Source: Dehalococcoidia bacterium (GTDB lineage Bacteria > Chloroflexota > Dehalococcoidia > Lucifugimonadales > UBA3495). From it: DNA of 64,000 nt. The stretch spans positions 2,840 through 66,839 of the forward strand of contig CBDCMJ010000001.1 of the NCBI GenBank assembly GCA_965218875.1, written 5' to 3'. A program made the position numbers and the translations under genes. This document shows positions 10,039 to 50,762 of this stretch, piece by piece (the first letter of the stretch is position 1; every line of letters starts with the position of its first letter). Under the pieces are notes generated by a model. It saw only the letters and a program-made list of their open reading frames with translations. It was not told where the DNA came from and searched no databases.

Positions 10039-10115
10039 GGGCCTGTAGCTCAGGTGGTTAGAGCGCGGTCCTGATAAGACCGAGGTCGTTGGTTCGAGTC
10101 CATCCAGGCCCACCA
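10039..10115 (+). tRNA. tRNA-Ile (anticodon GAT), CCA encoded
   Basis: Hand-folded cloverleaf. Acceptor GGGCCTG/CAGGCCC, D stem GCTC/GAGC, anticodon stem CGGTC/GACCG with loop CTGATAA, T arm GTTGG-TTCGAGT-CCATC. The T stem has one U.U mismatch. Confidence 0.9.
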
Positions 10116-12921: not shown

Positions 12922-13325
12922 TCCAGCAGCGTTTTGTTGGTGAAACGCTCGTACATCTCCACGATGAACCGCTTGGCGTTGAGAGACAGGGGACCGTCGG
13001 GCCGGGTGCCCACCCGGAAGGCGGGGTCGGACAGCACGTACTGGTAGGCCCGTTCCACCTCCAGGGCCTCGTCGGAGTGGAGGCCCGACTGGCCCAGGTG
13101 CCCGGCCTGCCGGATCAAATCCTCGGCGTCCACGTTGTAGGCGAAGGCCAGTTTGCGCAGCAGGTTGGCGCCGGGCGGGCGCTCTCCCCTTTCGATCTTG
13201 GAGAGATAGGAACTGGACACCCCGGTAAGCCGGTTCACGTCCCGCAGGCTGAGGCCGCCCCTGAGACGCCGCAGCAACGGCCCCAGGTTCTCACCCCGTT
13301 GCTGTTGTTCGTCAAGCTCTTCCAT
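12918..13325 (-). CDS. XRE-family HTH repressor-like protein
   Basis: LRRLRGGLSLRDVNRLTGVSSSYLSKIERGERPP is an XRE HTH. The gene order XRE-ImmA-RHH-integrase is typical of ICE and prophage control modules. Confidence 0.8.
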   Translation of the reverse strand: MEELDEQQQRGENLGPLLRRLRGGLSLRDVNRLTGVSSSYLSKIERGERPPGANLLRKLAFAYNVDAEDLIRQAGHLGQSGLHSDEALEVERAYQYVLSDPAFRVGTRPDGPLSLNAKRFIVEMYERFTNKTLLE

Positions 13326-16659: not shown

Positions 16660-19238
16660 CAGGCGTCACCTCCGGAACCACTCCCCGGCGGGTTGGGGTT
16701 GCGGGTTCGCGTCCGGTGCTGCCCGCCGGTCTGGTCCGTGGCCGGAGGCTGCGCCGGTGGGGAACCATTGGCGTTCTGCCGCTCCGCCAGGAGCCTGCGG
16801 TACTCGCTCACCCTCTGCTCCCCCTCGGCGTTGCCGGCCGCGATCTGGCCGGCGCTGGTGGTGTAGCCACGGGAGGCGTTGCGAACGGCCTCGGCCACCT
16901 CGGGGTCGCCCGGCTCCGGCTTGCGGACCATCATCGAGTAGGCGGGCAGACGCTCCGTCCCCACGGTGGCCCGCACGTAGCACTGATGGACCGGCAATGA
17001 CGTGATGTCGTCCTCGGTCACCCGGTCCTTGCCCAGCTCCCACACCAGCCGGCGGGCGTCGTTACCGGCCACCTGGAACACCGCCAGGCAGCCCAGGTTG
17101 GCCAGGATGGTGTCCTGCATGGTGCGGGAGAGGTCGTCCAGCTTGGCCAGGCTCTGCGTCGCCAGGATGAAACTGGCGCCGTACTTGCCCAGCTCGCTGA
17201 GCATGGACTCGTAATCGACGCCGGGCATGGACTGCATCTCGTCCACGACCACCAGGGCGCCCCGCCGCCGGTGCAGGGGCAGGCTCTCCTGCTCCCGGAT
17301 CACCGAGTCCACCAGGTTGAGCAGGGACGCTCCCACCAGGGCGGCCACGTCCCTGCCCGCCGTCCCCTGGGCGGTGGACACCAGCAGCACGCCGCCCTCC
17401 AGGATGGTCTCCCGCAGGTCGATGGTGGAGCGGGACTGGCCCAGAATGGAGCGGGCGCGCTTGGAGGAGGCGTAGTAGGCCAGGCGGGTCTGCACCGGGG
17501 CCAATGCCTCGGCCCGGTACTGGCGGTGCCAGCCGCCGAAGTCCCGCTCCCACCACTCCATGATGTAGGGGTCGGAGACCTTCGCCAGCACCTCGCCCCG
17601 GAACTTGCCGTCGGAGAGGAGCTTCAGCCCGTCCAGGATGGTGTGCTGGTCGCCGGCGTCGGTGGAAGGGTGGGCGTTGGCCTCGTGCAGGGTCTTGACG
17701 GTGTGCTCCAGGATGGACTGCATCCGTGGACCCCACTGTTCCCACAGGCCCCGCGCCACCCGCACCACCGAGTCGGCGGTGCGGTCCCTATCGGCGAAGA
17801 TGCGGGTGTCCAGCAGGTTGATGCCCGGCGCGCCCTGTTCGTCGGCCAGGTCGATGAGCCTCACTTTGTCGACGATGGACCCGGGGACGTGCTCCAGCAG
17901 CCCGGCCACCAGGTCGGCATGGGGGTCGACGACGATGATGGCGTCGCCGTCCCGGCCCGCCGCCTTCTCCCTGAGCTTGTGGACGACGATGTGGTGCATC
18001 AGGGTGGACTTGCCCATGCGGGTGCGGGCCACGTAGAGATGGTGACGGCGCAGCAGGTCCTCGGGGAAGCGAATCTCCCGGGTCTGCCCGCCGGTGGTGT
18101 CGCCCACCAGCGCGCCCTCGGCAGTGCCCCGGACCGGGGGCAGCAGGGACCTGGAGCCGGAGCGTTCCACCAACGGAGTCTCGTCACGCTCGCCGGGCGG
18201 GTGCCACAGCGTGGCCGCCTCTCGCACCCCCAGGATGCTGCGCTTGCCGAACAGACCCGGCCCGGCGGGGTGCAGGTTGTCCGTGGGAACCAGGGGTTGT
18301 ACGTCGCCGACCTTGAACCTGGCCCCGGCGGGATGATCGAAATGGCGGTAGGCGGCGGCCACCCCTTCCAGCAGTTCCTCGGCCCGCTGGATGCGGCCCC
18401 GTTCCGGCAGGACTGCCACCACCTGCAACTCGGCGTCGAAGGCGATGCGGGAGACCTTCTCCCGTATCAGGATGGGGTCGTAGACCCGGCTGCGGGCCTG
18501 CTTCCAGCGCCACCAGCCCCAGCCCGCCACGGTCAGGCCCAGGACGGAGCCCGCGCCCAGGAGCGACGCCTTGAGGAACTCGCCGTCCTGTACCCACAGG
18601 TAGCCCTTCAGGGCGGCCAGCGCCCCCGCGCCCAGCACGGCCATGGTGACGCCGTCCAGCTGCAGGGGCTTGGTCTGGTAGGTGTAGGAGGGATCGGGCC
18701 GCTGCTGGCCCGGGTTCTTGAAGGCCTTCTGCTGGTGAGCCTGGGACCAGTCGGGACCCAGGGAGCGCAGCAGCAGGCGGGAGACCAGCCGCTCGCCGGG
18801 CCGCAGGTCGCCGAGCGCGCCCAGGAGGGCAATGAGCGGATCGGAGCCGGCGTCCAGCAGGTCGTCGTCCCGGAAGGTGCGCAGGGGGACGAACTCCGGC
18901 CCGCCGGAGCGCAGAGTCAGGCCCCAGGCCTGCTCCCCCGGGTCCAGCCGCAACGGGTCGTCCCCGGGCGGTACCTCGCGGATGCGGGCCTGGGGGTAGT
19001 GGGCGGCCAGCTGTCCCTGGACCACCTGCCGGTCCAGGCAGCGGGCCATCAGGGTGACGCCGCTGGCGTCACCGGCCAGCTCCAGGGAGAAGGGTTCGGG
19101 GACGGCGATGGACTGGAGCAGGTTCTCCACGCCCAGCAGGGTCCGCTCGCCGGTGCGCGGCGGCGTCACCGCCAAAAGGGCCGGAGGACGACGGTTCCGG
19201 GCGTCGCCGAAGATGATTTTCTTCACGTTGATATTCAT
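16659..19238 (-). CDS. Type IV coupling protein (VirD4/TraD/TcpA-like ATPase)
   Basis: N-terminal TM region, Walker A ARTRMGKSTLM, Walker B ALVVVDEMQS. It sits next to VirB4. Confidence 0.75.
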   Translation of the reverse strand: MNINVKKIIFGDARNRRPPALLAVTPPRTGERTLLGVENLLQSIAVPEPFSLELAGDASGVTLMARCLDRQVVQGQLAAHYPQARIREVPPGDDPLRLDPGEQAWGLTLRSGGPEFVPLRTFRDDDLLDAGSDPLIALLGALGDLRPGERLVSRLLLRSLGPDWSQAHQQKAFKNPGQQRPDPSYTYQTKPLQLDGVTMAVLGAGALAALKGYLWVQDGEFLKASLLGAGSVLGLTVAGWGWWRWKQARSRVYDPILIREKVSRIAFDAELQVVAVLPERGRIQRAEELLEGVAAAYRHFDHPAGARFKVGDVQPLVPTDNLHPAGPGLFGKRSILGVREAATLWHPPGERDETPLVERSGSRSLLPPVRGTAEGALVGDTTGGQTREIRFPEDLLRRHHLYVARTRMGKSTLMHHIVVHKLREKAAGRDGDAIIVVDPHADLVAGLLEHVPGSIVDKVRLIDLADEQGAPGINLLDTRIFADRDRTADSVVRVARGLWEQWGPRMQSILEHTVKTLHEANAHPSTDAGDQHTILDGLKLLSDGKFRGEVLAKVSDPYIMEWWERDFGGWHRQYRAEALAPVQTRLAYYASSKRARSILGQSRSTIDLRETILEGGVLLVSTAQGTAGRDVAALVGASLLNLVDSVIREQESLPLHRRRGALVVVDEMQSMPGVDYESMLSELGKYGASFILATQSLAKLDDLSRTMQDTILANLGCLAVFQVAGNDARRLVWELGKDRVTEDDITSLPVHQCYVRATVGTERLPAYSMMVRKPEPGDPEVAEAVRNASRGYTTSAGQIAAGNAEGEQRVSEYRRLLAERQNANGSPPAQPPATDQTGGQHRTRTRNPNPPGSGSGGDA

Positions 19239-19273: not shown

Positions 19274-21526
19274 CTAATGACGCGGCCCCGGCCGCCACTC
19301 GATTACCTCGGTCTCTTCGGGGGTGGCCTCGATGCGGATGGGGAAGCGGTTGCCCCTTGCCAGCAGCAGCCCGTCTCCCCGAGGACAGGACAGGAGCCAG
19401 CGTTGCAGCTCCACCGGCAGGTCGAAGGCTTCGCCCACGGTGCTGATGGCGGCGGCGTCCTGCTGCAACAGCAGCTTGAAGGCGGCGTTCTGGAGCAGCG
19501 CCCTGCCGGAGTGGCCGGTGATGGCGCGCGACGAGTCCTCGGAGAGCAGGTCCTGCACGTCCTGGGTGATGAACTGCAACCCCAGCCGGTGCTTGCGGGC
19601 GCGCTTGGCCATGCTGACCATGAATGCCGCCCCTTCGGGGTGCTGCATGATGCTCCACACCTCGTCCACCACCAGCAGGCGGGGCCGGGGGTCTTGGGCG
19701 GCGGCGGCCCATACCGTCTCGGTGCAGACCATCGCGGCGGCGGGACGCAGTTCCGGTTCCAGCAGGTGCAGGTCGAAGACGGTGACCAGGGCCTCGTGGG
19801 TCAGCAGGTCGTCGCCCTCGTCGGAGAGCAGGTGGCGCAGGCTACCGGTGGCGAAGGGCCGCAGCAGGTGGGCGATGTCGCCGCCCTCGGCTTCCAGGTA
19901 GGCGTAGAAGTCGCGGAATCCGGTGCGCTCCCTATGCTCGGCGTAGTAGCCCGCCAGGGCGTGATCCAAAGACGAGCGCCGCTCGGCGCTGAGCCGCTCC
20001 CCCACCATCACCTCGATGAGACGCCGCAGGCTGCCGATGCGCTGGAGCAGTTCCTCGCTGTCGCCCCGATCGATGACGAAGGGGTTCATGCCCTGCCCCG
20101 CGATTCCAGGGGACAGCACCCTCCCGCCGGCGGCGCGGGCCATGTCGGCGTACTCGCCCTCCGGGTCGATCACGTAGGCGCGCACGCCACGGCAGACGCC
20201 GCGCAGCACCCCCAGCTTGGTGGCGAAACTCTTGCCGCTGCCGGAACGGGCTAGGACGGCGGTGTTGGCATTCAGGTGGGTGCCGTCGAAGGGGTCGTAG
20301 ACGATGGGGGCGCAGGCCCGCAGGTCGATGCCGTAGAGAGTGCCGCTCCTGGTGTCCAGGTCCGGCGGCGAGAAGGGGAAGAGCCGCGCCAGCGACGACG
20401 TGTCCAGGGTCCGCCACACCGCCACGGCGTTGAGGCCCAGGGGCAGGGTGGACAGCAGGCCCTCGCGCTGCCGGAAGGCCAGGTTGTCCAGCTTGCCCAG
20501 GGTGGCGGCGAAGTGGGCGCGGGCCTTCTGGGTCAACTCCTTCAGCCCGTCGGCGTTGTCGGCGTGCAACGTCACCGACAGGGAGGCATGGAACAGCCGC
20601 TCCCGTCCCCGCTGTACTTCATCGCGCAAACGGCTCACGTCCTCCAGGGCGATCTCCGCCTCCGGCGACAGGCTGCGGCCCCGGTTCAGAGACAGGGATT
20701 GCGCCGACTCGAAGCGGACCTTCTGCCACTCCAGGGTGCGGGCGGCCTGCTCCGACGGAATGGCGCCCAGGTGGACCGACAGATCCATGGGCGCTCCGGC
20801 GGCCATCAGCCCCTGTAGGAAGCCCGGGGCCAGCAAGCGGGGCCACTTGCCCAGGTGCAGGGAGCGGGTCAGGTGGGCTCCGACGCGGATGTCGCGGCGG
20901 TTGATCTCCACCGCCAACTCTGTGTCTTCATCACGGTCAATGGGTGAACCCCCAAGGGCCGAGGCCAGCAGCAGGAGGCGCAGCGGTTCTCCTTTCAGGG
21001 GGAACACTCCCAGCCCGGCCCGGGCCAGCAGCCCACGCATCTCGTCGGCGCGGTTGTGTTCGCAGATGGCGTAGAAGCGCCGGTCCAGGATTCCCTCCCG
21101 GGATTCCAAGCCGGTCAGGAGCCGTCCCAGGGAGTCGGCGGCATCTCGGGTCTGCTGGGGCAGGTCCTCGGGCTGGGCTTGTTCAAGATTGGCCCGCAGG
21201 CTTTGAAACACCGGCGGGTGCTGGCGGACCAGCAGTTGCACCGGGAAGTCCAGGGCGTTCAACGAACCGGCGAAGGCCCCCAGCTTGGGCTCGTCCAGCT
21301 CCAACCCCATCACCTCCAGCACCCCCAGCTTCACCCCGTCCAGCCGCACCGGCCCGTCCTCTTCCAGGTGGGACAGCATGAAGAACAGGGACAGCGGGGG
21401 TGGCGGCTTGGGTTCCGCCGTCTCGGTGAGCTCGATGTCATTGGGTTGAATTTCCTCGGACGCTGCGGGATTTTCCTTCCTGCCGCGTCCGGCCAGCTTC
21501 TTCAGGTTGGGTAGTGTCGCTTTCAT
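19274..21526 (-). CDS. VirB4/TrbE-like conjugative ATPase (ICE copy A)
   Basis: Walker A ARSGSGKSF, Walker B RLLVVDEVWSIM, about 750 aa. It is the homolog of the partial ORF at 61942 onward. Confidence 0.85.
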   Translation of the reverse strand: MKATLPNLKKLAGRGRKENPAASEEIQPNDIELTETAEPKPPPPLSLFFMLSHLEEDGPVRLDGVKLGVLEVMGLELDEPKLGAFAGSLNALDFPVQLLVRQHPPVFQSLRANLEQAQPEDLPQQTRDAADSLGRLLTGLESREGILDRRFYAICEHNRADEMRGLLARAGLGVFPLKGEPLRLLLLASALGGSPIDRDEDTELAVEINRRDIRVGAHLTRSLHLGKWPRLLAPGFLQGLMAAGAPMDLSVHLGAIPSEQAARTLEWQKVRFESAQSLSLNRGRSLSPEAEIALEDVSRLRDEVQRGRERLFHASLSVTLHADNADGLKELTQKARAHFAATLGKLDNLAFRQREGLLSTLPLGLNAVAVWRTLDTSSLARLFPFSPPDLDTRSGTLYGIDLRACAPIVYDPFDGTHLNANTAVLARSGSGKSFATKLGVLRGVCRGVRAYVIDPEGEYADMARAAGGRVLSPGIAGQGMNPFVIDRGDSEELLQRIGSLRRLIEVMVGERLSAERRSSLDHALAGYYAEHRERTGFRDFYAYLEAEGGDIAHLLRPFATGSLRHLLSDEGDDLLTHEALVTVFDLHLLEPELRPAAAMVCTETVWAAAAQDPRPRLLVVDEVWSIMQHPEGAAFMVSMAKRARKHRLGLQFITQDVQDLLSEDSSRAITGHSGRALLQNAAFKLLLQQDAAAISTVGEAFDLPVELQRWLLSCPRGDGLLLARGNRFPIRIEATPEETEVIEWRPGPRH

Positions 21527-21547
21527 CGGTGAATCTCCTTTTTTCTT

Positions 21548-21895
21548 CTATGGGCCGGGCAGGACTTCGATGATCCGGCTGTTGAGCGCGGCGGCGATGC
21601 CCTTGGCCAGCAGCACCACCACCAGCCCGACCACGGCCATGATTACGGCGTTCCTGGCTTTTCCCCGCCCAGAACCTTCTCCCTCGGCGCCCTCGGCCAT
21701 CAGGACGAACCCCGCCCAGACGATGGCGAAGAAGCACAGGCCCACCCCGGCGTAGGCCATGCCGGTCAGCACCACGTCGAAGGCGGCCAGCATCCTTGCC
21801 TTCTCGTCCGGCGCGGCGGCGGCCACGGAGGCCAGCGCCGCACCGGAGGCGAGCAGGGTCTTTGCCACGCGCCCTACCACGGCCACCAGTCCCAC
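21548..21895 (-). CDS. Small integral membrane protein, T4SS-associated (GTG start)
   Basis: It aligns with 61576-61920 (..MLAAFD.VLTGMA.AGVGLC.FAIVWAGFVLMAEGAEGEG.GRGKARNAVIMAVVGLVVVLLAK). It overlaps the stop of the upstream ORF, as in copy B. Confidence 0.6.
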   Translation of the reverse strand: MGLVAVVGRVAKTLLASGAALASVAAAAPDEKARMLAAFDVVLTGMAYAGVGLCFFAIVWAGFVLMAEGAEGEGSGRGKARNAVIMAVVGLVVVLLAKGIAAALNSRIIEVLPGP

Positions 21896-23493
21896 CAGTT
21901 GGAATCGCCCACCGGCGTCTGCTCCGCCCTGGGCGGCGGGGGTGTGGGCGGTGGAACGTGCAGGGCCTCGTATGGGTCGTCGGCCCCCACGCCCAGAGCC
22001 TGCCCCGCACTTGATGCGGGGGCCGGGGCCAGGGGCGCCGTCTCCGGCCTGGTCCGGGTGACCGGAGCGCGCTGGGTCTCGACGGCCCGCACGTGCTCCG
22101 GGTGGTGGACGTAGATACGGACGGTCCTGGTCACCGAGGAACCCTCGCCGCAGGACAGGCTCACCCGCCGGGTATACACGTCGGTTCGGGCCGGGTGGTG
22201 GGTGGTCTGCAACATCGGAGGCAGCGGCACGTTCAGCGTCGCCGTAAGGTCCGCCGTGATTTCCAGGTTGTGGACCGCCTTCCTGTTGGCGACGGGCAGC
22301 CGGAACCGGGTCTCGCCGCCCGCGACGAAGGACACGCTGGCCCGGTGGCTTCCGGCGGCGACGTCGACCCTGCCAGCGATTCGGGTGACGCTGGCGTCCA
22401 GCAGGGCGGGGACGTTCTGGCTGAAGTGGCCGCCGTACACCGGCAGGTCCACCTCCTGGCGGGTCTCGGCGATACACTCCGAGGCGATGACGCCGGAGAT
22501 GCTGCCCGGCGTCCACTCCAGGGAGGTCAGCTCCAGGTCGCACAGCCCGCCGTCGGCCTGGGGCAGGGGGTAGGGTATCTGGCCGCTCTTCAGGGTCACC
22601 GCTCCGGACCGGCCCAGGGCGTCCAACCAGGAGAAGGTGAAGGACGGCGACGGGCCGTTCAGGGTCAGGTTGTAGCTCTTGCTCTGGCCCGCCGTCAGGC
22701 TGGTGTTGGCCCCCATCTTCAGGGTCCGGCCCGACCTGCCGCCGAAGACCCGCACCTTCAGGTCCAGGTCGTGGGCCGCCCGCAGGGTGACGGCGGCGGT
22801 GTCGCCGGAGACGGCGAGACGTTCGATGAAGATGCGCCGTCCCGGCACCGGCTCCGGCGGGACGAAGTAGATCTCGTCCAGCCGCCAGCCCGGGTCCTCG
22901 TCGGGGTCGTCGGCCAGGACGGCGCTGGGCAGCAGGACCACCGCCAGCAGGCCCAGCGCCGCCACCGCCAGGAAGCGGTTCCAGGGTTTCTTGCCCTTGG
23001 ATTCATGCTGGCTGGGGTTGGGGCCGTTGCCGCCGTCCCGGTTGCGGCGTTTGCCGAACCAGCTGTGGGGACGGAACGGTGCTCTCCCCTTCTTGCGGGC
23101 AGCCCTGACCCCCCGGCTCAAGCCGGAGGCGGCTTTCTTGGCCAGCAGCCGCAGCGGGTCGGGCCTGGCCTCCGGCGGGGCGGGCGGCTCGCTCTTGGTC
23201 ATTTCCAGCGGGGACCCGGCGTAGCGCCTGGCCCCCAGGTTGAACTTCAGCAGGTCGGCGGCCACCAGGGGCAGCCCCCGGCCTCCCACCTTGCCCACGG
23301 TCAGGGCAATTCCCACGACGCCGATCAGCACGCCAACCGCCAGGCGCACCGCCATCGGGCCGAAGGGCAGGTAGTGGAAGGCTCCGTAGGACACGGCGCA
23401 CACCGCCACCACCGCCACTATCTGGGGAAAGGTGAACCACAGCAGCACTTTATCCTCGGCCTGCACGTGGGTTGGGACTTCATGCTCTCTCAT
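21874..23493 (-). CDS. PrgI/VirB3-like N-terminal membrane domain protein with a large extracellular region
   Basis: MREHEVPTHVQAEDKVLLWFTFPQIVAVV is the PrgI-family start pattern. It has two to three TM segments followed by about 350 aa of beta-rich region. It is paired with 59975-61594. Confidence 0.65.
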   Translation of the reverse strand: MREHEVPTHVQAEDKVLLWFTFPQIVAVVAVCAVSYGAFHYLPFGPMAVRLAVGVLIGVVGIALTVGKVGGRGLPLVAADLLKFNLGARRYAGSPLEMTKSEPPAPPEARPDPLRLLAKKAASGLSRGVRAARKKGRAPFRPHSWFGKRRNRDGGNGPNPSQHESKGKKPWNRFLAVAALGLLAVVLLPSAVLADDPDEDPGWRLDEIYFVPPEPVPGRRIFIERLAVSGDTAAVTLRAAHDLDLKVRVFGGRSGRTLKMGANTSLTAGQSKSYNLTLNGPSPSFTFSWLDALGRSGAVTLKSGQIPYPLPQADGGLCDLELTSLEWTPGSISGVIASECIAETRQEVDLPVYGGHFSQNVPALLDASVTRIAGRVDVAAGSHRASVSFVAGGETRFRLPVANRKAVHNLEITADLTATLNVPLPPMLQTTHHPARTDVYTRRVSLSCGEGSSVTRTVRIYVHHPEHVRAVETQRAPVTRTRPETAPLAPAPASSAGQALGVGADDPYEALHVPPPTPPPPRAEQTPVGDSNWWDWWPW

Positions 23494-23506
23494 TCCATCC
23501 CTCCTT

Positions 23507-23779
23507 CTAGCTGTCGGTCGGGTCGGGCACGGTGGGGTCCACCGGGTTGCCCACCACGGCGTTCATCACCAGCTCAACGACGCCATAAGCGACGAGGGCC
23601 AGCACGATGCCGGCCAGGGCGGTCATCATGGCCGCCTTGCCCCGCTCCATCTGGTTGGGCGCTCCGGAGGCGGTGAGGTACATGTAGGCGCCGTAGATGA
23701 AATAGCCCACGCCGACGACGCCCACCAAACCCAGCAGGATGCCCACCAGGTTCGATATGGTCTGTGTCAGGTCGTCCAT
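23507..23779 (-). CDS. TrbC/VirB2-like pilin-type small membrane protein
   Basis: 90 aa with two hydrophobic helices flanking YMYLTASGAPNQMERGKAAM. It is nearly identical to 59668-59964. Confidence 0.6.
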   Translation of the reverse strand: MDDLTQTISNLVGILLGLVGVVGVGYFIYGAYMYLTASGAPNQMERGKAAMMTALAGIVLALVAYGVVELVMNAVVGNPVDPTVPDPTDS

Positions 23780-23931
23780 ACGGTTTTTCTCCTTTCAAAT
23801 TGGATTGCCCGATATGTGAATTGCGTTGCTGTGGTCGGCCCCAATCTGCTACTGGCACATGTCTCCACCTCCCGGGCGGTTCCGGCGCGAAACCTGTCCG
23901 CGCCGGTGGTTGTCGTCGTTCCGGTTGCTGG

Positions 23932-24912
23932 CTACGGCCCCTGGCTGCGGGGCGTCGGGCCGCTTTGGGCCGGGGAAGTGGAGTTCTGGGCCGCCGAGTT
24001 CACCGCTCCGGCGGCCGTGGTGGCGGCGGCGCTGGCTGCGCCGGTCGCCGCTGACGCGGCGGCAACTCCCGCCGGTCCTCCGGCAGCTCCACCGGCCAAC
24101 ATCCCCAGGGCGCGGCCAGAACGCACCACCGAGCCGGGCAGGGACATCCCGAAGTAGAGGGTGTGCAGCCAGGCGTCGAAGGTCCCGTGATGCCCCAGCA
24201 TCGAGGGCACCCGGCCCGCCAGGTACATGAAGGCGATGGCCATCAGCAGCTTCCACACCAGGTCCTCCGACGGCTCGAAAGCGGCGATGGCGGCGAAGTC
24301 CTCCAGAAAGGCGAAGGCCAGGGCCACGGCGATGAGCTGGATTGCCTGCTGGAACACCGTGGTCATGAACAGCCGGAGCCAGTGCTTTCCCCAACCGGCG
24401 GTGTGGGGCAGAATCCACAGCCCCAGGGCGATGGGCGCCAGGCAGAGCAGGATGTCAATCAGGGCCAGGCGCAGGATCATCTGCACCAGCAGGTAGAGGA
24501 CGAAGAAGCCGAAGACCAGGTAGAGCAGGGCGATGAACACCGCCAGGCCGGTGTTGGCGGTCTCGACGGCGGTCAGCAGCGGCTCCAGGGGAGCCCGCAG
24601 CAGGGCGCCGGGGGTCACGTCCAGGGAGACGGCGATGAACTGGGAGACGGCGTGGGCCACGTCGATGACCAGGGCGCACCACCAGAGGGACGACGCGGCG
24701 GCGGTGAGTCCCAGGACCAGCCGGGGCACCATCTCCCGCCAGCCCGACTGGTGGTGGCCCAGGTGCTCCTGGACGATGAAGCTCAGCCCCATCCAGCCCA
24801 GGATCACCGCCAAAGCGCCGGAGGTGATGGCCCAGACCACCATCCACGCCTGCTGGATGAAGGGATGCAGGTAGGTGAGTTCAGGAGGAGTTCCGGTGAG
24901 GATGTCCGTCAT
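23932..24912 (-). CDS. VirB6/TrbL-like polytopic membrane protein
   Basis: It has six or more hydrophobic segments and an Ala/Gly-rich tail. By eye it is about 97 percent identical to 58542-59522. Confidence 0.65.
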   Translation of the reverse strand: MTDILTGTPPELTYLHPFIQQAWMVVWAITSGALAVILGWMGLSFIVQEHLGHHQSGWREMVPRLVLGLTAAASSLWWCALVIDVAHAVSQFIAVSLDVTPGALLRAPLEPLLTAVETANTGLAVFIALLYLVFGFFVLYLLVQMILRLALIDILLCLAPIALGLWILPHTAGWGKHWLRLFMTTVFQQAIQLIAVALAFAFLEDFAAIAAFEPSEDLVWKLLMAIAFMYLAGRVPSMLGHHGTFDAWLHTLYFGMSLPGSVVRSGRALGMLAGGAAGGPAGVAAASAATGAASAAATTAAGAVNSAAQNSTSPAQSGPTPRSQGP

Positions 24913-24918
24913 ACGTCC

Positions 24919-25542
24919 CTACCCTCCCCGGCACTCGTCGAGGTCGCTGGCCGACACCTTCTGCACCACGCCGCACAGGGTCCCGTGGACTCCCTGGATG
25001 ACCCACTTGGCGGCGGCCCGGGCCCAGCGGTCGGGGTCGAGAGCGCCCAGCACCCGGTCCCACAACCCGTTGGGCTGGTGGACGGGAATCAGGGCGTGGA
25101 AGACGTGGTGGTCGCCGCCCCCGGTGCGCGGAACGGCCAGCACCAGGAGATATGCCTGCTCGGGGTGAAGCTCGGGCTGCTCGTCCAGGGCCGGGTACTC
25201 GAAGGTGTACTCCCAGCCTTCGGAGAGGTGCTTTTCGCCGCCCTGGACCCGGTAGGTATTGGTGAGCCAGTCGCCGGTGTCGGGGTGGCGGATGGAGTAG
25301 AACAGGACATCGGTCTTCCGGCTGAGGATGGGGCGGGCCACGAAGTCGCCCTCCTTCTTCCGCTCCACCATCTGCCGGTCCCGGTTGACCAGGGTGACGG
25401 AGTCGGTGTCGGGGGGCGGCGGGGACTGGGCCAGTGCCAGCCCAGAAGCAGGGATGGCAACGAGGGCCGTAAAGAGCAAAGCCCCTGCCAGGAGAATCAG
25501 GCGGCGGGCTTTGCCGGACCTGGGGATGAATCGGCGGAACAT
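24919..25542 (-). CDS. Secreted protein of the T4SS operon (signal peptide)
   Basis: MFRRFIPRSGKARRLILLAGALLFTALVAIPASGLALA is a signal peptide. It is the homolog of 57915-58535. Confidence 0.6.
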   Translation of the reverse strand: MFRRFIPRSGKARRLILLAGALLFTALVAIPASGLALAQSPPPPDTDSVTLVNRDRQMVERKKEGDFVARPILSRKTDVLFYSIRHPDTGDWLTNTYRVQGGEKHLSEGWEYTFEYPALDEQPELHPEQAYLLVLAVPRTGGGDHHVFHALIPVHQPNGLWDRVLGALDPDRWARAAAKWVIQGVHGTLCGVVQKVSASDLDECRGG

Positions 25543-25948
25543 GGTGGCCTCCTCGTCGGTGATGGGGACGTTTTGTCCCGCCGTCGAGTCTGACCACGCG
25601 GGGTGGGCTTACCAATGGCTTGTGAGGGGGGACTGTACGGAGGCCCCCCTCACGGGGCATCAACTTTCCGGGGCGCGGTGTGATGTTATGGGGGTGTACA
25701 GGGATTGGCAGGCAGCGACGCGAGTCCACGGTGGCCGGTTCATTCGGGAAACCGGCGGATTAGCTGCATTTCCGTTGCATTACAGCAAGCACTTGGGTAT
25801 TAGGGCTGGTTGCCAGGTTTCCGGCATCGCCCCCCTACAGGAATTGCAACCCTGTGGCCTGCTGGAGCGTTGTTGTCGTGCAAGCGCCCTGTGTCGAAAC
25901 CGCAACTTTGCGCCGGTGGTCATACCGCTGGCGCCGGGAGGTACGGAC

Positions 25949-26803
25949 ATGGAACGGAGCCGGAACGTGGAGGACCTGCACCACCTGCGTCTGATGGCGT
26001 TGCTGCACGAGCTGGTGCGGGAGCGGGACTTGAAGGGCGCGGCGGAGGCCCTGGGCCTGGACCCCAGGACGCTCAGCGCCAGCATGGACCGGGGGGCGTT
26101 GTCGGGGCTGGCCCAGGTGGCCCTGGAGCGGTGGCTGTTGGCCGAGGGGGACCGGGAGGCTGCCCAGGCCCGCGACGAGGTGCGGGAGCTGGCGGGGCGC
26201 GTGGACGGCGTTGAGCAGCGGGTTGACGGGCTGGCGGACGAGGTGGGCAAGGCAGTGGGGGAAGTCCAGCGGGTTGCCGAGGAAGCTGGCGGGAATGGCG
26301 CCGGGGATCGGGCGAGAGAATTGCAGCGGTTGGAGCGGCGGATGGACCGGCTGGAGTCAGCAGGCGGGGTTGGCGCCGGACGGGCCGGTGGGCCGCAGGC
26401 GACCGGAGCGGGGCGACGCCCGGCTCTGACAGGGATTGCGGCGTCCGCGCGGCGTTACCCCGACCTGGTTACCCGCGATGCCGACGCTGACGACGAGGAG
26501 GTCTTCGGCGACGCCTGGCCCTTGGTTGACGAATGGCGCGGCTTGTGGAAAGGCCACCCCGACCGGGTCAGGGGCCTGCGCTGGCTTGACACCGAGGCGC
26601 GCATCTTGGAGCTGGAGTTGGCGATGCTGGAGGAGCACGGCCTGACCCTGCCGCCGGAGACGGAGCCGCTGCGGGGGCTGGAGCGGAACGCCCAGCTGGG
26701 CTGGCGGCAGAAAGCACTGGCCGACACTCGCCGGAAGTTAGCCCGGCGGAGGGCGCTGCGCCGGCTTAGGCGGTTGCTCACCCTTGGGCTGTGGCGGCGG
26801 TAG
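25949..26803 (+). CDS. ICE-conserved regulator-like protein (N-terminal HTH-like segment, coiled-coil, conserved C-terminal domain)
   Basis: ..LKGAAEALGLDPRTLSASM.. and the C-terminal RRYPDLV..WPLVDEWRGLW..ILELELAMLEEHGLTLPPETEPLRGLERN are shared with 56667-57518. Confidence 0.55.
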   Translation: MERSRNVEDLHHLRLMALLHELVRERDLKGAAEALGLDPRTLSASMDRGALSGLAQVALERWLLAEGDREAAQARDEVRELAGRVDGVEQRVDGLADEVGKAVGEVQRVAEEAGGNGAGDRARELQRLERRMDRLESAGGVGAGRAGGPQATGAGRRPALTGIAASARRYPDLVTRDADADDEEVFGDAWPLVDEWRGLWKGHPDRVRGLRWLDTEARILELELAMLEEHGLTLPPETEPLRGLERNAQLGWRQKALADTRRKLARRRALRRLRRLLTLGLWRR

Positions 26804-27871
26804 CCGGCGCCGGCGCCGGGGTGAATCTCGGTGGTGCTTCATTGCCGCACCATTGCGGCTTCTTTGTTGCTTCATCTGGGCTGCTCACCGGCAAGTGATT
26901 GGGTTGACGATGCCAGATTTCGCCGAAAACCCCTTGCCGGAGGCTTTGCCGGGACCGGATACTAATTGGCGTTGTCAGGCTTTTTCCAGCGTTTCCCGCC
27001 CTAGAAACCTGGAGGGTCCCGTCCCTGGACCCGGGATCGGACGCATAGGATCGAGCATAGCTCTCCGAACGTCCGCCCATGTTGGACTGGCCGCATAGAG
27101 TTGAGCCTAGCTCCTCGAACGGTCGCCCACGAGGGAATTGCTGATGGGCTGGCGTGATTGAACGTCTCTCCCGAAGCAGGTAGACCCAACTCATCGAAGT
27201 GCAGGTGCGCTTCACCCGGAACACCAACCCAACGGCGTAACCCCTGACCCACGGACTGAACATCAAGGAGGTGGCAACCGGACAACAACGGCGTCCCGGA
27301 ATCCCTTTCCACGGTGGTACTCCAACCCCAAGGCCCATTCTAGTTTGCAAGGAGGTGGCAACCGGAGTAACAACGGCGTCCCGGAATCCCATTCCACGGC
27401 GGACCCCGAACCCACGGCAATCCCACTGACAGGAGGTGTCAGCTAGACCCAGCACGGTTTCTCCGGCGTCCCTTACCCCTTCGGCATCACCGGCGGAGCG
27501 GCTGACCTGCTTCGTCATCCCCACAATGCGGTTGGAGCGTGGATAACGCACCGGCCGCTTCAACACGACTGCGGCGTAGCTACTGAACAAGGGTAGCGGC
27601 ACCGCAGATTCAGCGCGCTCCGGTCGGCCAGCGGCGACAGACCGGACGCTTATCGTTCCAGTTCCAGCGCAGACTCCGTTGACCGGACTGCGTTCCTCTT
27701 GATTTCCCCTCACTTAGCAGCATCCCAGGCATAAGACCCTGGCCGGGCTGCGTCCTTCTCCAACCCCCAACCTGCGTTCTCCGTTGCGGTGTCTGACCCA
27801 GGGCGGAGTGCGTCCGGCGCCGGGCGTTGACCCTGTTTCCCAACGACGTTCGCAAACATAAGGAGGTGCTT
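26804..27871 (+). other. Conserved non-coding, repeat- and hairpin-rich region (candidate oriT, ssDNA promoter or structured RNA), ICE copy A
   Basis: It is homologous to 54224-55495 in inverse orientation, with indels that break every reading frame. It contains a 65-nt block identical in both copies (26972-27036) and 51/52-nt direct repeats (27264-27314, 27348-27399). The hairpin at 27569-27607 carries a compensatory change. Confidence 0.6.
27264..27399 (+). repeat. Two 51/52-nt direct repeats, 84 nt apart, each starting CAAGGAGGTGGCAACCGGA
   Basis: CAAGGAGGTGGCAACCGGA(C/GT)AACAACGGCGTCCCGGAATCCC(T/A)TTCCACGG occurs at 27264-27314 and 27348-27399. Neither has a plausible start codon or ORF after the SD-like AAGGAGGTG. 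Confidence 0.7.
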
Positions 27872-28177
27872 ATGCGCATCAGGGACAGACTCGTTCAAAT
27901 CAAAGCCGTCGCGGTGGCGGTTGGCAGCTTCATCAGCCGGCACAAGCGGGCGTCGATTGCGGTTGGCGTAGCGTTGCTCATCGCCGGGCCGCTGCTCACG
28001 GGGACCGGCGGCGAGACCTTTTTCCTCAACCTGGTGGGCCTCGGCATCGTCGCCCTCGTCGTCCGGCGGATTGTGCGGGCCAACGAGAGGCGGCAGGCGG
28101 CGCAGGCCCGGCAGGCCAATTGCCGGTGCCGGTGTCATAGGCAGCAGCAAACTCAGCAACAAGGAGGCACTCCATGA
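27872..28177 (+). CDS. Small membrane protein (ICE-conserved)
   Basis: An AAGGAGGTG ribosome-binding site is present. MRIRDRLVQIKAVAVAVGSFISRHKRASIAVGVALLIAGPLL parallels MRITERLNQLKTTAVAVGGFIGGHRRLFIAVAAVLLIGGPL at 54044-54223. Confidence 0.6.
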   Translation: MRIRDRLVQIKAVAVAVGSFISRHKRASIAVGVALLIAGPLLTGTGGETFFLNLVGLGIVALVVRRIVRANERRQAAQARQANCRCRCHRQQQTQQQGGTP

Positions 28178-29688: not shown

Positions 29689-29895
29689 TCCACTCCCTCT
29701 CCCCCAACCCTCTCCTCTACCGGCCCGCCTTCCCCGGCGGGCCTTCGCGTTTTCAACCACTCTCCTACTGATCCCCTTGGGCTACACCTGCCCATCTCCC
29801 GACGGGGCCTCCCGCCCCGCCGACGGCTTCCAGTGCCGGAAGCCGCACGAACGCCCATCACCCACGGAATTACAACTTCTGCAAGGAGATACGTC

Positions 29896-30777
29896 ATGTC
29901 CAACGAGAACGGCAACGGCAACCACCGCAACGGCGCGAACAACAACGGGCACCAGCGCAACGGCCAGGTCAACGGCAGCGCGAACAGCCACCAGAACGGC
30001 AACGCCAACCACGACATCCCCGCCAACGGCGTGTCCAAGAACGGCAGCAACAACGGCAACGGGCACCAGCCCGCCGACTCCATTCCCGCCCACGACCTCC
30101 TCTGGGACTCCCTGCCCGCCAGCGTCACCGAGAAGCTGGCCCGGCCCCTGGACGCCAGCCTGGTCTCCCAGCGCAGGGGCCGGGGCAACCGGAGTTTCAG
30201 CTACGTCGAGGGCCGCACCGCCATCGACCAGGCCAACCGCATCTTCGGGTTCGGCGGCTGGGGCCACGAGGTGGTGGGCGACGTGCTGCTCAGGGAGCTG
30301 GACCAGGTGAACACCCAGACCGGCGAGGTCAAGCGCATCCGGGCCTACTCCGCCACGGTGAAGGTCACCGTCCCCGGCGCGCCGCCCCGCACCGACGTGG
30401 GTTTCCAGCCGGTCTCCGACGAGACCGCCGAGGGGCATGAGACTGCGTTCAAGGGCGCGGTCACGGACGCTCTCAAGCGGGCGCTCAGGACCTTCGGCGC
30501 CCAGTTCGGCAACGCGCTCTACGGCGACGTGGCAGGCCAGCCCGCCGGCGGCGCCGGCGACACGCTGGCCCCGGCCCTGCGCAAGACCCTGCTGGACCTG
30601 GGGGTCAGCCAGGGCTTCGACGAGGAGAGGGTGCGCCAAGCGGTGCGGGGGCAGACGGGCAAAGACCTGGACGAGCTGCCCGCCTCGGAGCTCACGCCCC
30701 TGGTGGAGCGGGCCGCCCGTAAGGTGCAGCAGCGGCAGGATGCGGAGGCGGGTCAGAACAGCGGCGCCGAACAGTAG
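29896..30777 (+). CDS. Rad52/Rad22-type single-strand annealing protein
   Basis: RSFSYVEGRTAIDQANRIFGFGGWGHEV..KRIRAYSATVKV..GHETAFKGAVTDALKRALRTFG is the Rad52/22 core. The N-terminus is a low-complexity NG-rich segment. An AAGGAG ribosome-binding site is present. Confidence 0.75.
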   Translation: MSNENGNGNHRNGANNNGHQRNGQVNGSANSHQNGNANHDIPANGVSKNGSNNGNGHQPADSIPAHDLLWDSLPASVTEKLARPLDASLVSQRRGRGNRSFSYVEGRTAIDQANRIFGFGGWGHEVVGDVLLRELDQVNTQTGEVKRIRAYSATVKVTVPGAPPRTDVGFQPVSDETAEGHETAFKGAVTDALKRALRTFGAQFGNALYGDVAGQPAGGAGDTLAPALRKTLLDLGVSQGFDEERVRQAVRGQTGKDLDELPASELTPLVERAARKVQQRQDAEAGQNSGAEQ

Positions 30778-30883
30778 ACCTTCCGGCTAACTGGCAACCA
30801 ACCAGGCAATGGGGCCGTTCCCTGACAACAGGGGCGGCCCCGCTTCTCATCTACCGGACCAAACAACACAAGGAGGAAACGAC

Positions 30884-31204
30884 ATGACCGGAACCAGGAT
30901 GCACACCCCCTGGGGCTACCCCCAGGACATCGAGGAACTGGCCGAAGGGGTCTGGCGGGTCTCCACCGCCGGCCACGGCGGGTTGAAGCTGAGCCGGGAG
31001 CGGTGGAAGGAACTGCCCGACTTGGTCAGGGACTCCTTCCTCAACCCGACCTACGCGGAAGAGGACTGCGAGGAACCCATCGCCAGGACGCTGCTGGGCA
31101 TCGGCGACGAAAGGGAGCGGGAGTTCGCCATCAGGGTGGCGAACTGCTTCCAGCGGTACGCACCGGCGCTGCCCTACCTGCAAGAACAGAGAGGTGCGAA
31201 ATGA
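30884..31204 (+). CDS. Small conserved ICE/plasmid protein (HTPWG..STAGHGG motif, DUF7007-like)
   Basis: MHTPWGYPQDIEELAEGVWRVSTAGHGGLKLSRERW. An AAGGAGGAAA ribosome-binding site is present. Confidence 0.5.
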   Translation: MTGTRMHTPWGYPQDIEELAEGVWRVSTAGHGGLKLSRERWKELPDLVRDSFLNPTYAEEDCEEPIARTLLGIGDEREREFAIRVANCFQRYAPALPYLQEQRGAK

Positions 31205-31602
31205 CCAACGTTACGACCCGCCCCAGGCCCCGCAGCCTGCCCAGCGTTACGACCAAGCTGGCAACGGAACTGGGCAACCTCTACGTAACCGTCTGCCTGG
31301 ACGAGGACGGAAACCCCTTCGAGGTCTTCGGCTCTCTCGGCAAGGCCGGAAGCCTCCAGCACGGGGTCACGGAGCTCGCCTGCCGCCTGGTCTCCCTGCA
31401 CCTGCGGCGGGGCACTCCCATCGACGAAATCGTGGACCAGTGCCAGGGCATCAGCGAAATGCAGCCCTGGCCCAACGTGATGGAGGACGGCAGCACGGTG
31501 TACGTGCGCGGCCTCGGCGACGGCATCGCCCTCATCCTGCGGGGCCACCTGGAAGCACGGGACGAGGTGGAAATGGCAGACCTCAAGCTGGCCGCCGACT
31601 GA
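31201..31602 (+). CDS. TSCPD-like domain protein (resembles the class II ribonucleotide reductase C-terminal domain)
   Basis: LGNLYVTVCLDEDGNPFEVFGSLGKAGSLQHGVTELACRLVSLHLRRGTPIDEIVDQCQGI. It shares an ATGA overlap with the upstream gene. Confidence 0.45.
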   Translation: MTNVTTRPRPRSLPSVTTKLATELGNLYVTVCLDEDGNPFEVFGSLGKAGSLQHGVTELACRLVSLHLRRGTPIDEIVDQCQGISEMQPWPNVMEDGSTVYVRGLGDGIALILRGHLEARDEVEMADLKLAAD

Positions 31603-31701
31603 CCGCCGAACCCGACCTGCCAAGGCGCACGGGGCCGTCTCCCACGGGGAGCGGCCCCGCTCTCATTTACCCAACACAGACATGACGGAGGAAGGACAAC
31701 C

Positions 31702-32760
31702 ATGACGACGACCATTGACAGCAAGACGGACGTCTACTCGCGGCCCAACGCCCGCTTCGGCGAGGACGGGACCCTGGAGATCCGGGCCTCGGCGGTGGGC
31801 AACTGCCGCCGCGCCCTCTGGTACGAGGCCAACCAGTACCCGGTCACCAACGCGCGCACCGAGGAGTCCCTGACCGTCCTGGAGGCGGGCAACGCCCTGG
31901 AGCCGGTGGTGCTCCGGGCCATGCGGCGGGCCGGTTGGGAGATTGACGCCACTGACCGGGACAACCCTGAAATGATGTCCCTGCGCCTCGGCCCGACGCT
32001 GGTGGTCACGGGCCACGTGGACGCCACCGGCGTCGTCCCCATCTTCGGCGATGAACCCAGCGTCATCGAGATCAAGACCCGGGGGCCGGAAGCCTACAAG
32101 CGGTGGTGGAAGTTGGGCGCGGAGCGCAGCCACCCGGAGTCGGTGGCCCAGGCCGCCTTCTACTCCTACGGGACCTTCGGCGAGGCGCGGGACGTGGTGA
32201 TTGCCACCATGGACACCGGCTCCAGGCAGTGGGATTTCGAGGTGATTCCGGCGGAGCGGGTCGCCACCGCCTTCCACCGGGCCTGCGAGCGGCTGGGGAC
32301 CATCGGCGCCCACCGCCTGCTGCACGGGCGGGACTCGCAGGCCCTGCCGGAGCGGGACTTCACCGCCGACGACTGGCAGTGCCAACGCTGCCCCTTCCTG
32401 AACACCTGCCTGCCGGGGTCGGCGGCGGTCGAGGAGCCGGAGGACGAACCCGCCGCGGATACGGAGCCGGTGACCGACGACGAGGCGCAGGCGGCGCTGC
32501 GGGAGTACGAGAACGCCCAGGAGATGCTGAAGGCCATCGAAGAGGACAAGCAGTGGGCCTTGGGTATGCTGCGGGGCTGGCTCAAGCAGCAGGGCAAGGA
32601 CAAGGCCAAGCTGGAGGGCCGGGAGAAGACCCGCACCGTGGGGATGGTCAAGTCCACCCGCTACAACGTCGATCACAAGAGGCTGAACGCGCTGCTGGAG
32701 CCGGAAAACAGGGCGACCATCGTCACCGAGAACGTCTCCGAGTACCTGCGGGTCAGCTAG
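31702..32760 (+). CDS. PD-(D/E)XK nuclease (YqaJ/Cas4-like exonuclease)
   Basis: ..GHVDATGV..SVIEIKTRG gives the D..ExK motif. The CQRCPFLNTC cysteine cluster follows, then an acidic linker. It is adjacent to the annealase and SSB genes. Confidence 0.6.
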   Translation: MTTTIDSKTDVYSRPNARFGEDGTLEIRASAVGNCRRALWYEANQYPVTNARTEESLTVLEAGNALEPVVLRAMRRAGWEIDATDRDNPEMMSLRLGPTLVVTGHVDATGVVPIFGDEPSVIEIKTRGPEAYKRWWKLGAERSHPESVAQAAFYSYGTFGEARDVVIATMDTGSRQWDFEVIPAERVATAFHRACERLGTIGAHRLLHGRDSQALPERDFTADDWQCQRCPFLNTCLPGSAAVEEPEDEPAADTEPVTDDEAQAALREYENAQEMLKAIEEDKQWALGMLRGWLKQQGKDKAKLEGREKTRTVGMVKSTRYNVDHKRLNALLEPENRATIVTENVSEYLRVS

Positions 32761-41938: not shown

Positions 41939-42063
41939 CCGGCCTTGTACAATGCAGTGACGATAGAAGACCTGTACTGGGAGAGGACAACATCAACTGG
42001 CAGGCCATGGCCATTCGGCTCGGTCGAGAATGCCTGGTTCGCCTTATAGGAGACCCATCTGAA

Positions 42064-50640: not shown

Positions 50641-50653
50641 GCGCAGCCGACAG

Positions 50654-50682
50654 GGAGGCCGCTGTCCTAGGCAGCGGCCTCC
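50654..50682 (+). terminator. Strong hairpin downstream of the giant ORF
   Basis: GGAGGCCGCTG-TCCTAGG-CAGCGGCCTCC forms an 11-bp stem. No U tract follows. Confidence 0.4.
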
Positions 50683-50762
50683 GCCCGCGGCGACGCTGAG
50701 GGGGCCTTCCCAACACGCCGGCGACCCAGCCGCCGGTTCAGTCGCGCGAGAGGAGATGACGC

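Follow-up and report, generated by a model that had tools for sequence, protein, structure and literature searches.

A promoter-linked structured region upstream of an ssb-containing operon in Dehalococcoidia conjugative elements: a candidate 5′ leader RNA family

We analysed a 64,000-nt stretch of DNA from a Dehalococcoidia bacterium (GenBank assembly GCA_965218875.1, contig CBDCMJ010000001.1, positions 2,840 to 66,839), hereafter the window, which carries two inverted copies, A and B, of a conjugative element (A 19459-25554 against B 64000-57903, 88% identity by self-BLAST). The DNA is rich in GC, ~0.62-0.72 across the element regions, and copy A is an integrative and conjugative element (ICE) adjoining a tRNA-Ile (GAT) gene at 10039-10115. 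Both copies hold a homologous gene-free region (A 26804-27871, plus strand; B ~54224-55400, minus strand), which in A is placed between a divergent type IV secretion system (T4SS) operon and an ssb-containing operon. Here, we describe in this region a non-coding element that is linked to a promoter, is structured on the sense strand and directly precedes a long operon; we take it, with some reserve, to be a leader RNA. To our knowledge, few bacterial RNAs combine a length above 500 nt with extensive conserved structure, several known classes of them have no established function, and we know of nothing on the control of gene transfer in uncultivated Dehalococcoidia.

The locus

The region is bounded in copy A by a helix-turn-helix (HTH)-like gene and by the first gene of a rightward operon of ~11 kb, which after a small membrane protein encodes a 156-aa protein, Rad52/22, DUF7007, a Cas4/RecE-like exonuclease, SSB, RadC, a DUF6094 methyltransferase and a helicase that ends near 38.5 kb. 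The features from the HTH-like gene to the operon are as follows.

Copy A
Ends at 26803, plus: HTH-like gene upstream of the gene-free region
26844-26859, plus: terminator-like hairpin GCCGCACCATTGCGGC then TTCTTTGTTG, after the HTH-like gene; a consensus match, outside the folded element
26934-26939 and 26958-26963, plus: putative sigma70-type promoter, -35 TTGCCG, 18-nt spacer, -10 GATACT
26986-27012, plus: P1, a nearly invariant bulged hairpin or inverted repeat, CCAG(C)GTTTC, 8-nt loop, GAAACCTGG
27014-27032, plus: P2, hairpin GGGTCC..GGACCC
27034-27133, plus: two tandem 50-nt alpha units, a direct repeat
27264-27448, plus: subfamily-specific 84-nt direct repeats, two full and one partial
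27472-27666, plus: p3 domain, ~193 nt and 39 base pairs (RNAalifold; covariance model R1 match 151.9 bits)
27695-27859, plus: p4 domain with CA-rich tail
27860-27866 and 27872-27874, plus: Shine-Dalgarno sequence AAGGAGG and ATG of the first gene
27872-28177, plus: 101-aa membrane protein, first gene of the operon

Copy B
55496-56626, plus: extra gene (376 aa) between the HTH-like gene and the region
55348-55343 and 55324-55319, minus: putative promoter, -35 TTGCCG and -10 GATACT, from aligned upstream regions
55211-55314, minus: core, with P1 55270-55296 and P2 55250-55268 (covariance model R2 match 93.8 bits)
54626-54822, minus: p3 domain (model R1 match 114.3 bits), containing the hairpin 54685-54723
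54224-54566, minus: two tandem p4 modules

An initial annotation of this DNA had described ~1.1 kb without a gene, conserved in both ICE copies. Self-BLAST bears this out with homologous islands of 91% and stretches near 75%: the collinear matches pair 26955-27078 with 55327-55203 (91%), 27373-27661 with 54925-54631 (75%) and 27771-27999 with 54322-54097 (74%). The interval then proposed, 26804-27871, needs one correction: its left 130-160 nt (26804 to ~26965) carry the terminator-like hairpin and the promoter and lie outside the folded element. The tandem units of differing copy number that had been noticed are also there, as 50-nt units in two copies (27034-27133 in A), 84-nt AGGAGGTG units in 2-3 copies (27264-27448, only in A of the two copies), a 61-nt unit in 2.8 copies (54969-55137 in B) and a p4 module that occurs once in A and twice in B.

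Judged by its sequence, the gene-free region is non-coding. We see next to no chance that it is decayed or unrecognised coding DNA, whether in the long open reading frames (ORFs) 26778-27713 (minus) and 54033-54989 (plus) or in small ORFs behind internal AGGAGG motifs, even though open frames reach 250-318 codons and three internal Shine-Dalgarno-like motifs are present. The GC content of codon positions 1/2/3 is flat in the two long ORFs (0.61/0.60/0.62 and 0.62/0.61/0.66), against ~0.70/0.47/0.90 in the neighbouring genes, which reflects the strong third-position (GC3) bias of the genome. As the initial annotation had it, the ORFs are out of register between the copies, and most A/B indels in a pairwise alignment of the region are not multiples of three. 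Among relatives 88-93% identical the longest open frame of the leader switches both strand and frame, and a conserved coding frame, sought across the homologous leaders, was found in no consistent frame or strand. Nor did manual reading find a start codon at a usable distance after the internal AGGAGG motifs.

Conservation across Dehalococcoidia

Relatives were sought with an alignment of the two HTH-like proteins in one-genome-per-species contigs, which gave 249 loci; the best 80 were fetched (numbered with the prefix L below) and all of these come from metagenome-assembled genomes (MAGs) of Dehalococcoidia/Chloroflexota. An exact search for the core pattern (P1 and P2) added 16 further metagenome contigs, with no match in viral contigs. 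Six of the 16 come from the metagenome of the sponge Aplysina aerophoba (assembly MKWU; PMC5649159). Altogether, a homologous leader is conserved in more than 80 related elements, with a common layout of sigma70-like promoter, P1, P2 and three-tier alpha hairpins, p3, p4, CA-rich tract, AAGGAGG and ATG. By iterative nhmmer the core is found in essentially all loci, modules p1 and p3 in 81 leaders each and p4 in 65, and the AGGAGGTG repeat module in only 14. Nearly every locus has at least 500 nt without a GC3-supported ORF from the core to the next gene. The leader is ~900 nt long in copy A and 500-900 nt across the family, occasionally longer (526-1605 nt across loci), and all leaders end at a ribosome-binding site (RBS).

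The initial annotation had assigned the region to no named RNA family, and the Rfam scans agree. With Rfam 15 at gathering threshold, the tRNA is the sole match in the whole window; permissive scans of the leaders of A, B and L058 give chance-level matches only (E >= 0.015), and a scan of eleven further loci returns group II intron matches only, elsewhere in those loci. Thus, across 13 diverse members, the leader falls into no Rfam 15 family, with OLE, GOLLD, ROOL, HEARO, raiA, riboswitches and ribozymes all covered. A BLAST search of the 72,556 plasmids of PLSDB with the region gave no match, and in the full-text literature we found no description of such an RNA, or of such an ICE, in Dehalococcoidia or sponge Chloroflexi. 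Given these three negative results, we regard the leader as a candidate for a new RNA family, which resembles conjugation-operon leaders in position and differs from them in size, modularity and type of operon. Ribozymes were dropped for want of an Rfam match. The intron matches are group II intron domain V/VI (RF00029, 63-67 bits) and lie in related elements a few kb from the leader (L030 11669-11767, L033 12171-12269, L007 3443-3543).

Covariation in the p3 domain

RNAalifold on 60 distinct sequences folds p3 into 39 pairs in 9 helices, with a closing stem around four hairpin arms. Helices 7 and 8 are the hairpin 27569-27607 that the initial annotation had singled out, and its compensatory change is real: the A-T pair in CTGCGGCGTAGCTAC..GTAGCGGCACCGCAG of A is a G-C pair in CTGCGGCGTAGCTGC..GCAGCGGCACCGCAG of B (54685-54723, minus). 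In a MAFFT alignment 94.0% of cells are paired, compared with 23-50% when the partner is slid by 1-3 columns, and there are 135 double-change cells against 37 +/- 6 in shuffles (covariation score 0.328 against 0.221). Covariance model R1 built on p3 has 89 matches, all in sense orientation and only two of them within the window. The model-based alignment (85 distinct sequences) leans towards the structure, a bias from which the MAFFT alignment is free, and has 93.8% of cells paired against 29-41% slid, compensatory change at 24 of the 39 pairs, and 262 against 70 +/- 9 double-change cells, with none of 500 shuffles reaching the observed value on any of five measures.

Whole-leader alignments were less useful. 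An E-INS-i MAFFT alignment of all 52 distinct leaders spreads over 2670 mostly gapped columns with no usable consensus, so modules and subfamilies were analysed instead. RNAalifold on subfamilies predicts 190-250 pairs each with 3-20 covarying, which is over-prediction and served only to spot recurring helices. MAFFT with RNAalifold recovers part of the helices of the core and p4, since bulges and arms misalign there. Helices outside P2, the alpha units and p3 are accordingly only partly resolved.

Modules outside p3

P1 is the most invariant non-coding sequence of the locus and occurs in all loci, ~17 nt past the predicted transcription start. Pairing across its nine pairs is 93% and the sequence hardly varies; subfamilies differ in where the bulge sits, and CCAC/GTGG is found in one lineage. 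A CRISPR-repeat mimic at P1 was considered and dropped, P1 being too short and no array being seen, although no dedicated test was made. P2, by contrast with the near-invariant P1, shows compensatory change at 5/5 pairs (for example GC 71 / UA 12, and CG 37 / UA 25 / UG 18). Realignment of the core with the second covariance model, R2, gave 102 matches, again all in sense orientation. Each alpha unit is a three-tier hairpin, GGAC..GGA..GAGC-loop-GCTC..TCC..GTCC, followed by CCCA(C/U)G.GGG; its outer and middle tiers covary, and repeated hidden Markov model matches to it are seen in many loci. In A and in homologues, an invariant UCCCUG in the P2 loop (27023-27028) is complementary to an invariant GAGGGA after the alpha units (27122-27127). 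These two segments could form a long-range pairing or pseudoknot, which covariation cannot test because neither partner ever varies.

Every 84-nt repeat opens with a Shine-Dalgarno-like CAAGGAGGTG, which on manual reading has no usable start codon.

In copy A, p4 contains a stem GCAGC 27717-27721 / GCTGC 27747-27751 that encloses CCAGG 27725-27729 / CCTGG 27738-27742, together with a CU-rich tract (27753-27761) and the recurrent motif (G/C)TGCGTC. Its structure was derived manually, read off the same sequences on which it was then counted, and follows the commoner subfamily, so that A-type copies fit it less well; on this footing 86.3% of cells are paired against 34-46% slid, and covariation is moderate, with 25 double-change cells against 16.5 +/- 3.2 (1/500 shuffles). 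In manual alignment reading, the counted structure pairs ACCTG 27770-27774 of copy A with CGGAG, and 3/5 of these pairs hold; for A-type copies, arms CTCCG 27779-27783 / CGGAG 27804-27808 are a manually proposed alternative that carries no tool score. The motif TGCGTC occurs 132 times in sense against 5 times in antisense orientation in 52 leaders, which is ~2.5 per leader and in one orientation, at irregular spacing in A (27685, 27750, 27775, 27808). Iterons or an oriV were dropped on account of this irregular spacing and of covariation that points to structure.

Every leader ends with AAGGAGG(T), 5-8 nt and ATG, and its 3′ end is CA-rich and apparently unpaired. The CU-rich tracts after each UGCGUC motif could pair with AGGAGG. 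A CUUCUU:AGGAGG pairing, proposed by a home-made helix finder run on nhmmer columns, lacked covariation and is not relied on.

In L049, L053, L055 and L019 (in these four ~600-730 nt after the core start) and in L041 (~855), the leader-end AAGGAGG-ATG opens only a mini-ORF of 4-6 codons, such as ATGCACGTTGAGTAA (MHVE*) or ATGCACATTGATTAA (MHID*). In other loci the ATG opens a small membrane protein, whose first codons, M-H/R-I-K-E-R, are kept at the nucleotide level.

Promoter

When the 70 nt upstream of the core are aligned, TTGCCA/TTCACA/TTGACA, a spacer of 17-18 nt and (A/G)ATAAT or (G/A)ATACT lie at a fixed distance from the core, and 59 of 74 distinct upstream regions reach a promoter score of >=8/12. 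From this consensus, transcription of copy A would start near 26970. The promoter stays joined to the leader despite DNA inserted after the upstream gene in copy B, L001, L004, L034, L075 and L076; in each of these six, the insertion is an unrelated gene between the HTH-like gene and the promoter-leader unit.

A conserved box, GTGAACACTTTGGGCGG, lies ~25-35 nt upstream of the -35 in many loci (55378-55394, minus, in copy B; ~6858-6874 in L007), whereas copy A preserves it weakly. It might serve an activator or a repressor, or be an UP-like site.

Some loci have two copies of the core a few kb apart. A second promoter-core-p3 unit ~1.2 kb upstream of the HTH-like gene is seen in L044 (4732-5180), L047 (4727-5176), L049, L053, L055, L057 and L075, so the leader cassette can precede different genes. 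The first gene downstream of the leader likewise varies between loci.

Folded strand

Pairs in p3 comprise 417 G:U against 39 A:C, and folding of the opposite strand would pair only 77.8% of cells. Hence it is the sense strand that folds. RNAalifold gives the same preference, with -115.6 kcal/mol for sense against -95.7 kcal/mol for antisense p3 (G:U/A:C 492/82 against 250/200) and -404.5 against -340.2 for 21 full leaders. At some p3 positions G:U is the dominant pair (63/84, for example), and a G:U kept as the dominant pair is typical of RNA. Across p3, wobbles (G:T in the DNA) make up ~19% of paired cells.

This strand bias bears on the three readings that the initial annotation had offered for the region. 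Its large structured RNA gains from the covariation, the sense-strand fold and the upstream promoter; its Frpo-like single-strand promoters are disfavoured, and its origin of transfer (oriT) with accessory-protein sites comes into question at P1 only.

A reading as Frpo-type promoters would have the transferred strand, as template, form hairpins that restore -35/-10 boxes in double-stranded form, and transcription of the leading genes would then precede synthesis of the complementary strand. The region does lie upstream of ssb, methylase and recombination genes, a cargo typical of leading regions, and such promoters are common upstream of ssb in plasmids (PMC11541004). They must, however, fold the template (antisense) strand, which the strand bias excludes, as selection for pairing acts here on the sense strand. 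Moreover, a consensus scan finds no -35/-10 pair inside the region on either strand, and the helices, ~20 of them, are G+C-rich and 3-9 bp long, compared with one long imperfect stem of 50-350 nt. We therefore rate this reading as very improbable.

The bias also excludes symmetric double-stranded protein sites as the source of the covariation. An oriT with double-stranded sites for relaxosome accessory proteins, nicked at or near P1, could explain why P1 is the most invariant non-coding sequence of the locus, why it is flanked by the divergent T4SS operon on one side and the ssb-containing operon on the other, and why TGCGTC recurs ~2.5 times per leader in one orientation. Binding-site symmetry, on the other hand, predicts no tenfold excess of G:T over A:C, and an oriT predicts neither nested long-range stems spanning 190 nt nor 0.6-0.9 kb of ~20 covarying helices. 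The irregular spacing of TGCGTC, a Replic_Relax gene 10 kb away (15019-16659) and the two cores a few kb apart in some loci speak against it as well, and we give an oriT a small chance.

By itself, a strand bias fits a plus-strand single-stranded DNA (ssDNA) element as well as an RNA. The plus strand would then be nicked and transferred, and the hairpins would form a single-strand origin (sso/ssi) that recruits RNA polymerase or primase for synthesis of the complementary strand. P1, directly ahead of them, might then be the hairpin of oriT, an arrangement that would follow the order oriT-nicK-sso1 of ICEBs1. Strand-specific structure conserved by covariation is equally expected of an sso, the folded region closely follows the invariant inverted repeat P1, much as sso1 follows oriT in ICEBs1 (PMC4595007), and every conjugative element of this type needs such a site, of which none has been identified here. 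If true, the region would be the largest and best-supported single-strand origin candidate outside Firmicutes. We nevertheless hold this to be unlikely, and favour RNA, for several reasons. The promoter is always fused to the 5′ end of the leader and the module always ends at AAGGAGG-N5-8-ATG, both needless for a DNA-only element. Wobbles are common, and at several positions they are what is conserved, in stems of 3-5 bp, where G:T is unfavourable in DNA. The 0.5-0.9 kb of ~20 short helices with a closed multi-branched domain are two or more times larger than the 418-bp sso1 fragment with its three stem-loops. Transfer of the plus strand would also bring ssb and the anti-restriction-type genes in as the non-template strand, opposite to the leading-region orientation rule (PMC11541004). 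The relaxase-like and T4SS genes lie on the strand opposite to the leader, and this, together with the orientation rule, suggests by analogy that the minus strand would be the one transferred. No nic site was recognised.

Wider setting in the window

The remaining genes annotated in copy A, to the left of the leader, are as follows.

10058-11692, minus: large serine recombinase (Resolvase, Recombinase and Zn ribbon); the ORF call overlaps tRNA-Ile
11983-13325, minus: ImmA/IrrE-like peptidase and HTH repressor pair
15019-16659, minus: Replic_Relax (relaxase-like) protein
16659-19238, minus: VirD4-like coupling protein
19274-21526, minus: VirB4/TraC
Up to 25542, minus: T4SS pilin and VirB6/TrbL

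Element A probably has its left end and attachment site at the junction of tRNA-Ile and serine recombinase (10039-11692). To the right of the leader, a Rad52/22-type annealase, DUF7007 and a Cas4/RecE-like exonuclease cluster at 29833-32760, ahead of the SSB and RadC genes, as a phage-like recombination module within a conjugative element.

Copy B has a downstream gene set unlike that of copy A, with a multi-HTH protein at 52567-53859. Ahead of its small membrane-protein ORF it has a weakened RBS, GGAGAC as opposed to AAGGAGG (54224-54240, minus), and this ORF is truncated at 59 codons (54223 down to ~54044, minus). Copy B may be a decaying or rearranged element. Its extra 376-aa protein (55496-56626) has no match in Pfam, NCBIfam or PHROGs. 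The same databases give weak HTH matches or none for the HTH-like protein upstream of the region and its neighbours, and so do not hint at a partner protein.

Between the two element copies, the stretch 42007-51560 holds a giant ORF (42007-50640, 2877 aa) followed by a 265-aa ORF. Both are built of ~290-nt tandem repeats, 75-90% identical and with strong AT skew, and look like a huge repeat-rich protein of surface or adhesin type.

Interpretation

We consider it somewhat more probable than all other accounts taken together that the region comprises a promoter and, behind it, a structured 5′ leader RNA, long and built of several domains, that acts in cis on the ssb/rad52/radC/methylase operon. 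Transcription would begin near 26970, and the RNA would fold P1, P2 and the tandem three-tier hairpins in that order, then pass through repeats with decoy Shine-Dalgarno sequences (in this subfamily only) and the closed multi-helix p3, and finally through p4 into the unstructured CA-rich tract and the RBS of the first gene. The leader could decide in cis whether RNA polymerase reaches the 11-kb operon, by attenuation, antitermination or Rho evasion, or alternatively set the survival time of the mRNA. The regulator would probably be a protein with affinity for P1 and for the recurring GGAGUGCGUC / GCUGCGUC motifs; the invariance of P1 and the one-strand bias of TGCGTC point to a sequence-specific partner of this kind. 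The establishment and recombination genes could in this way be expressed in step with the element being activated or entering a new host. Simple translational sequestration is unlikely, since the RBS lies in a CA-rich, apparently unpaired tail.

Several points weigh against this interpretation. A consensus scan finds no intrinsic terminator (stem and U-tract) inside the leader in A or B, so a classical attenuator is not demonstrated. Transcription of the region is inferred from a promoter consensus, and a stricter scan (>=9/12) leaves the promoter uncalled in both A and B. P1, as it never varies, could be a site in DNA. Single-sequence folding energy is no better than that of shuffled sequences (z = +1.59 sense, +1.06 antisense), which makes the evidence for structure evolutionary rather than thermodynamic, and that evidence comes from related MAG fragments, all of uncultivated organisms, with an effective sequence number of ~4.4 in the covariance model. 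To this are added the lean of the model-fitted p3 alignment, the ambiguity of strand bias between RNA and plus-strand ssDNA, and three small subfamily alignments that show no strand preference, their low diversity making them uninformative.

The same promoter and the same structural evidence would serve equally for a large non-coding RNA that stands alone and acts in trans on host or defence proteins, for example as their decoy or scaffold, and is expressed first after entry. Highly conserved junction sequences and repeated GGAGUGCGUC motifs suggest protein binding, modules are duplicated independently of the downstream gene, and that first gene varies and in several loci is only a mini-ORF of 4-6 codons. 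Against a trans-acting RNA, there is no terminator or processing signal between leader and operon, and the module always ends precisely at a strong RBS; we judge it improbable. A bolder version of the cis-acting leader, to which we lend only tentative belief, is that of a new class of large (0.5-0.9 kb) modular 'ornate' RNA of Dehalococcoidia conjugative elements, which would bind a specific protein via P1 and GGAGUGCGUC. During establishment in a new cell such an RNA would serve as a processive antiterminator, or else offer host or defence factors a decoy or scaffold. It would be made first and in greatest amount from the establishment promoter, and its role would go beyond attenuation of its own operon.

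The candidate has a defined setting, as the promoter-proximal leader of an ssb/rad52/exonuclease/radC/methylase/helicase operon; more than 80 loci with variable module copy number supply many natural variants, and the candidate offers a clear experimental handle. ICEs that carry this conserved, putatively regulatory RNA are widespread among Dehalococcoidia that have not been cultivated, and sponge metagenomes are the source of some.

Comparison with known systems

Among single-strand origins, the sso of pBAA1 still functions when its primary sequence is replaced and its secondary structure kept, and ICEBs1 sso1, contained in a cloned fragment of 418 bp including gene flanks and with three stem-loops, is orientation-specific and lies just downstream of oriT (PMC4595007). 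The Dehalococcoidia leader is likewise non-coding, orientation-specific and structure-dependent, just downstream of a candidate oriT-like inverted repeat. It differs from sso1 in being at least twice as long, in its multi-branch domains, in the conserved wobbles of its short stems, and in having a promoter at one end and an RBS at the other. With Frpo/ssi it shares a position upstream of the ssb, methylase and anti-restriction-type cargo of a conjugative element (PMC11541004), whereas the sense-strand fold, the lack of -35/-10 boxes in stems and the lack of a single long hairpin set it apart.

OLE, GOLLD, ROOL, HEARO and raiA are large 'ornate' bacterial RNAs, of which GOLLD, ROOL and HEARO are associated with mobile DNA. 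The leader is like them in exceeding 500 nt, in its many conserved helices, in its association with mobile DNA and in its narrow phylogenetic range. Unlike them, it is a modular 5′ leader that ends in an RBS and varies in module copy number, and it does not match their Rfam models.

Phage nut/boxB and HK022 put are antitermination sites in RNA. P1 may resemble them, being a promoter-proximal, sequence-invariant small hairpin, here with a bulge, that opens a long operon of a mobile element. It differs in that no N-like or Q-like protein or binding of RNA polymerase is known for P1, which is equally a candidate DNA operator.

In function, the closest precedent is pLS20, whose conjugation operon begins with a 456-nt structured leader that forms a zipper-type attenuator (cATT), followed by the conAn antitermination system (PMC13401043, PMC8191782). 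In an attenuator of this type, extension of a long central stem keeps an intrinsic terminator ahead of the first gene from forming. Differences from this system are that scans of the A and B leaders showed no intrinsic terminator, that many short covarying helices and closed domains take the place of one long imperfect stem, that the operon is one for establishment and recombination rather than for the T4SS, with no ConAn-like genes recognised downstream, and that the Dehalococcoidia leader has no sequence or model similarity to any described family. Both place a long structured untranslated leader between a regulated promoter and a very long conjugative operon in a monoderm-type host, and the role proposed for both is control of transcription elongation into the operon. 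If this holds, long-leader control of conjugation operons, as in plasmids of Gram-positive bacteria, extends to Chloroflexota, to an establishment operon and to a much more elaborate architecture.

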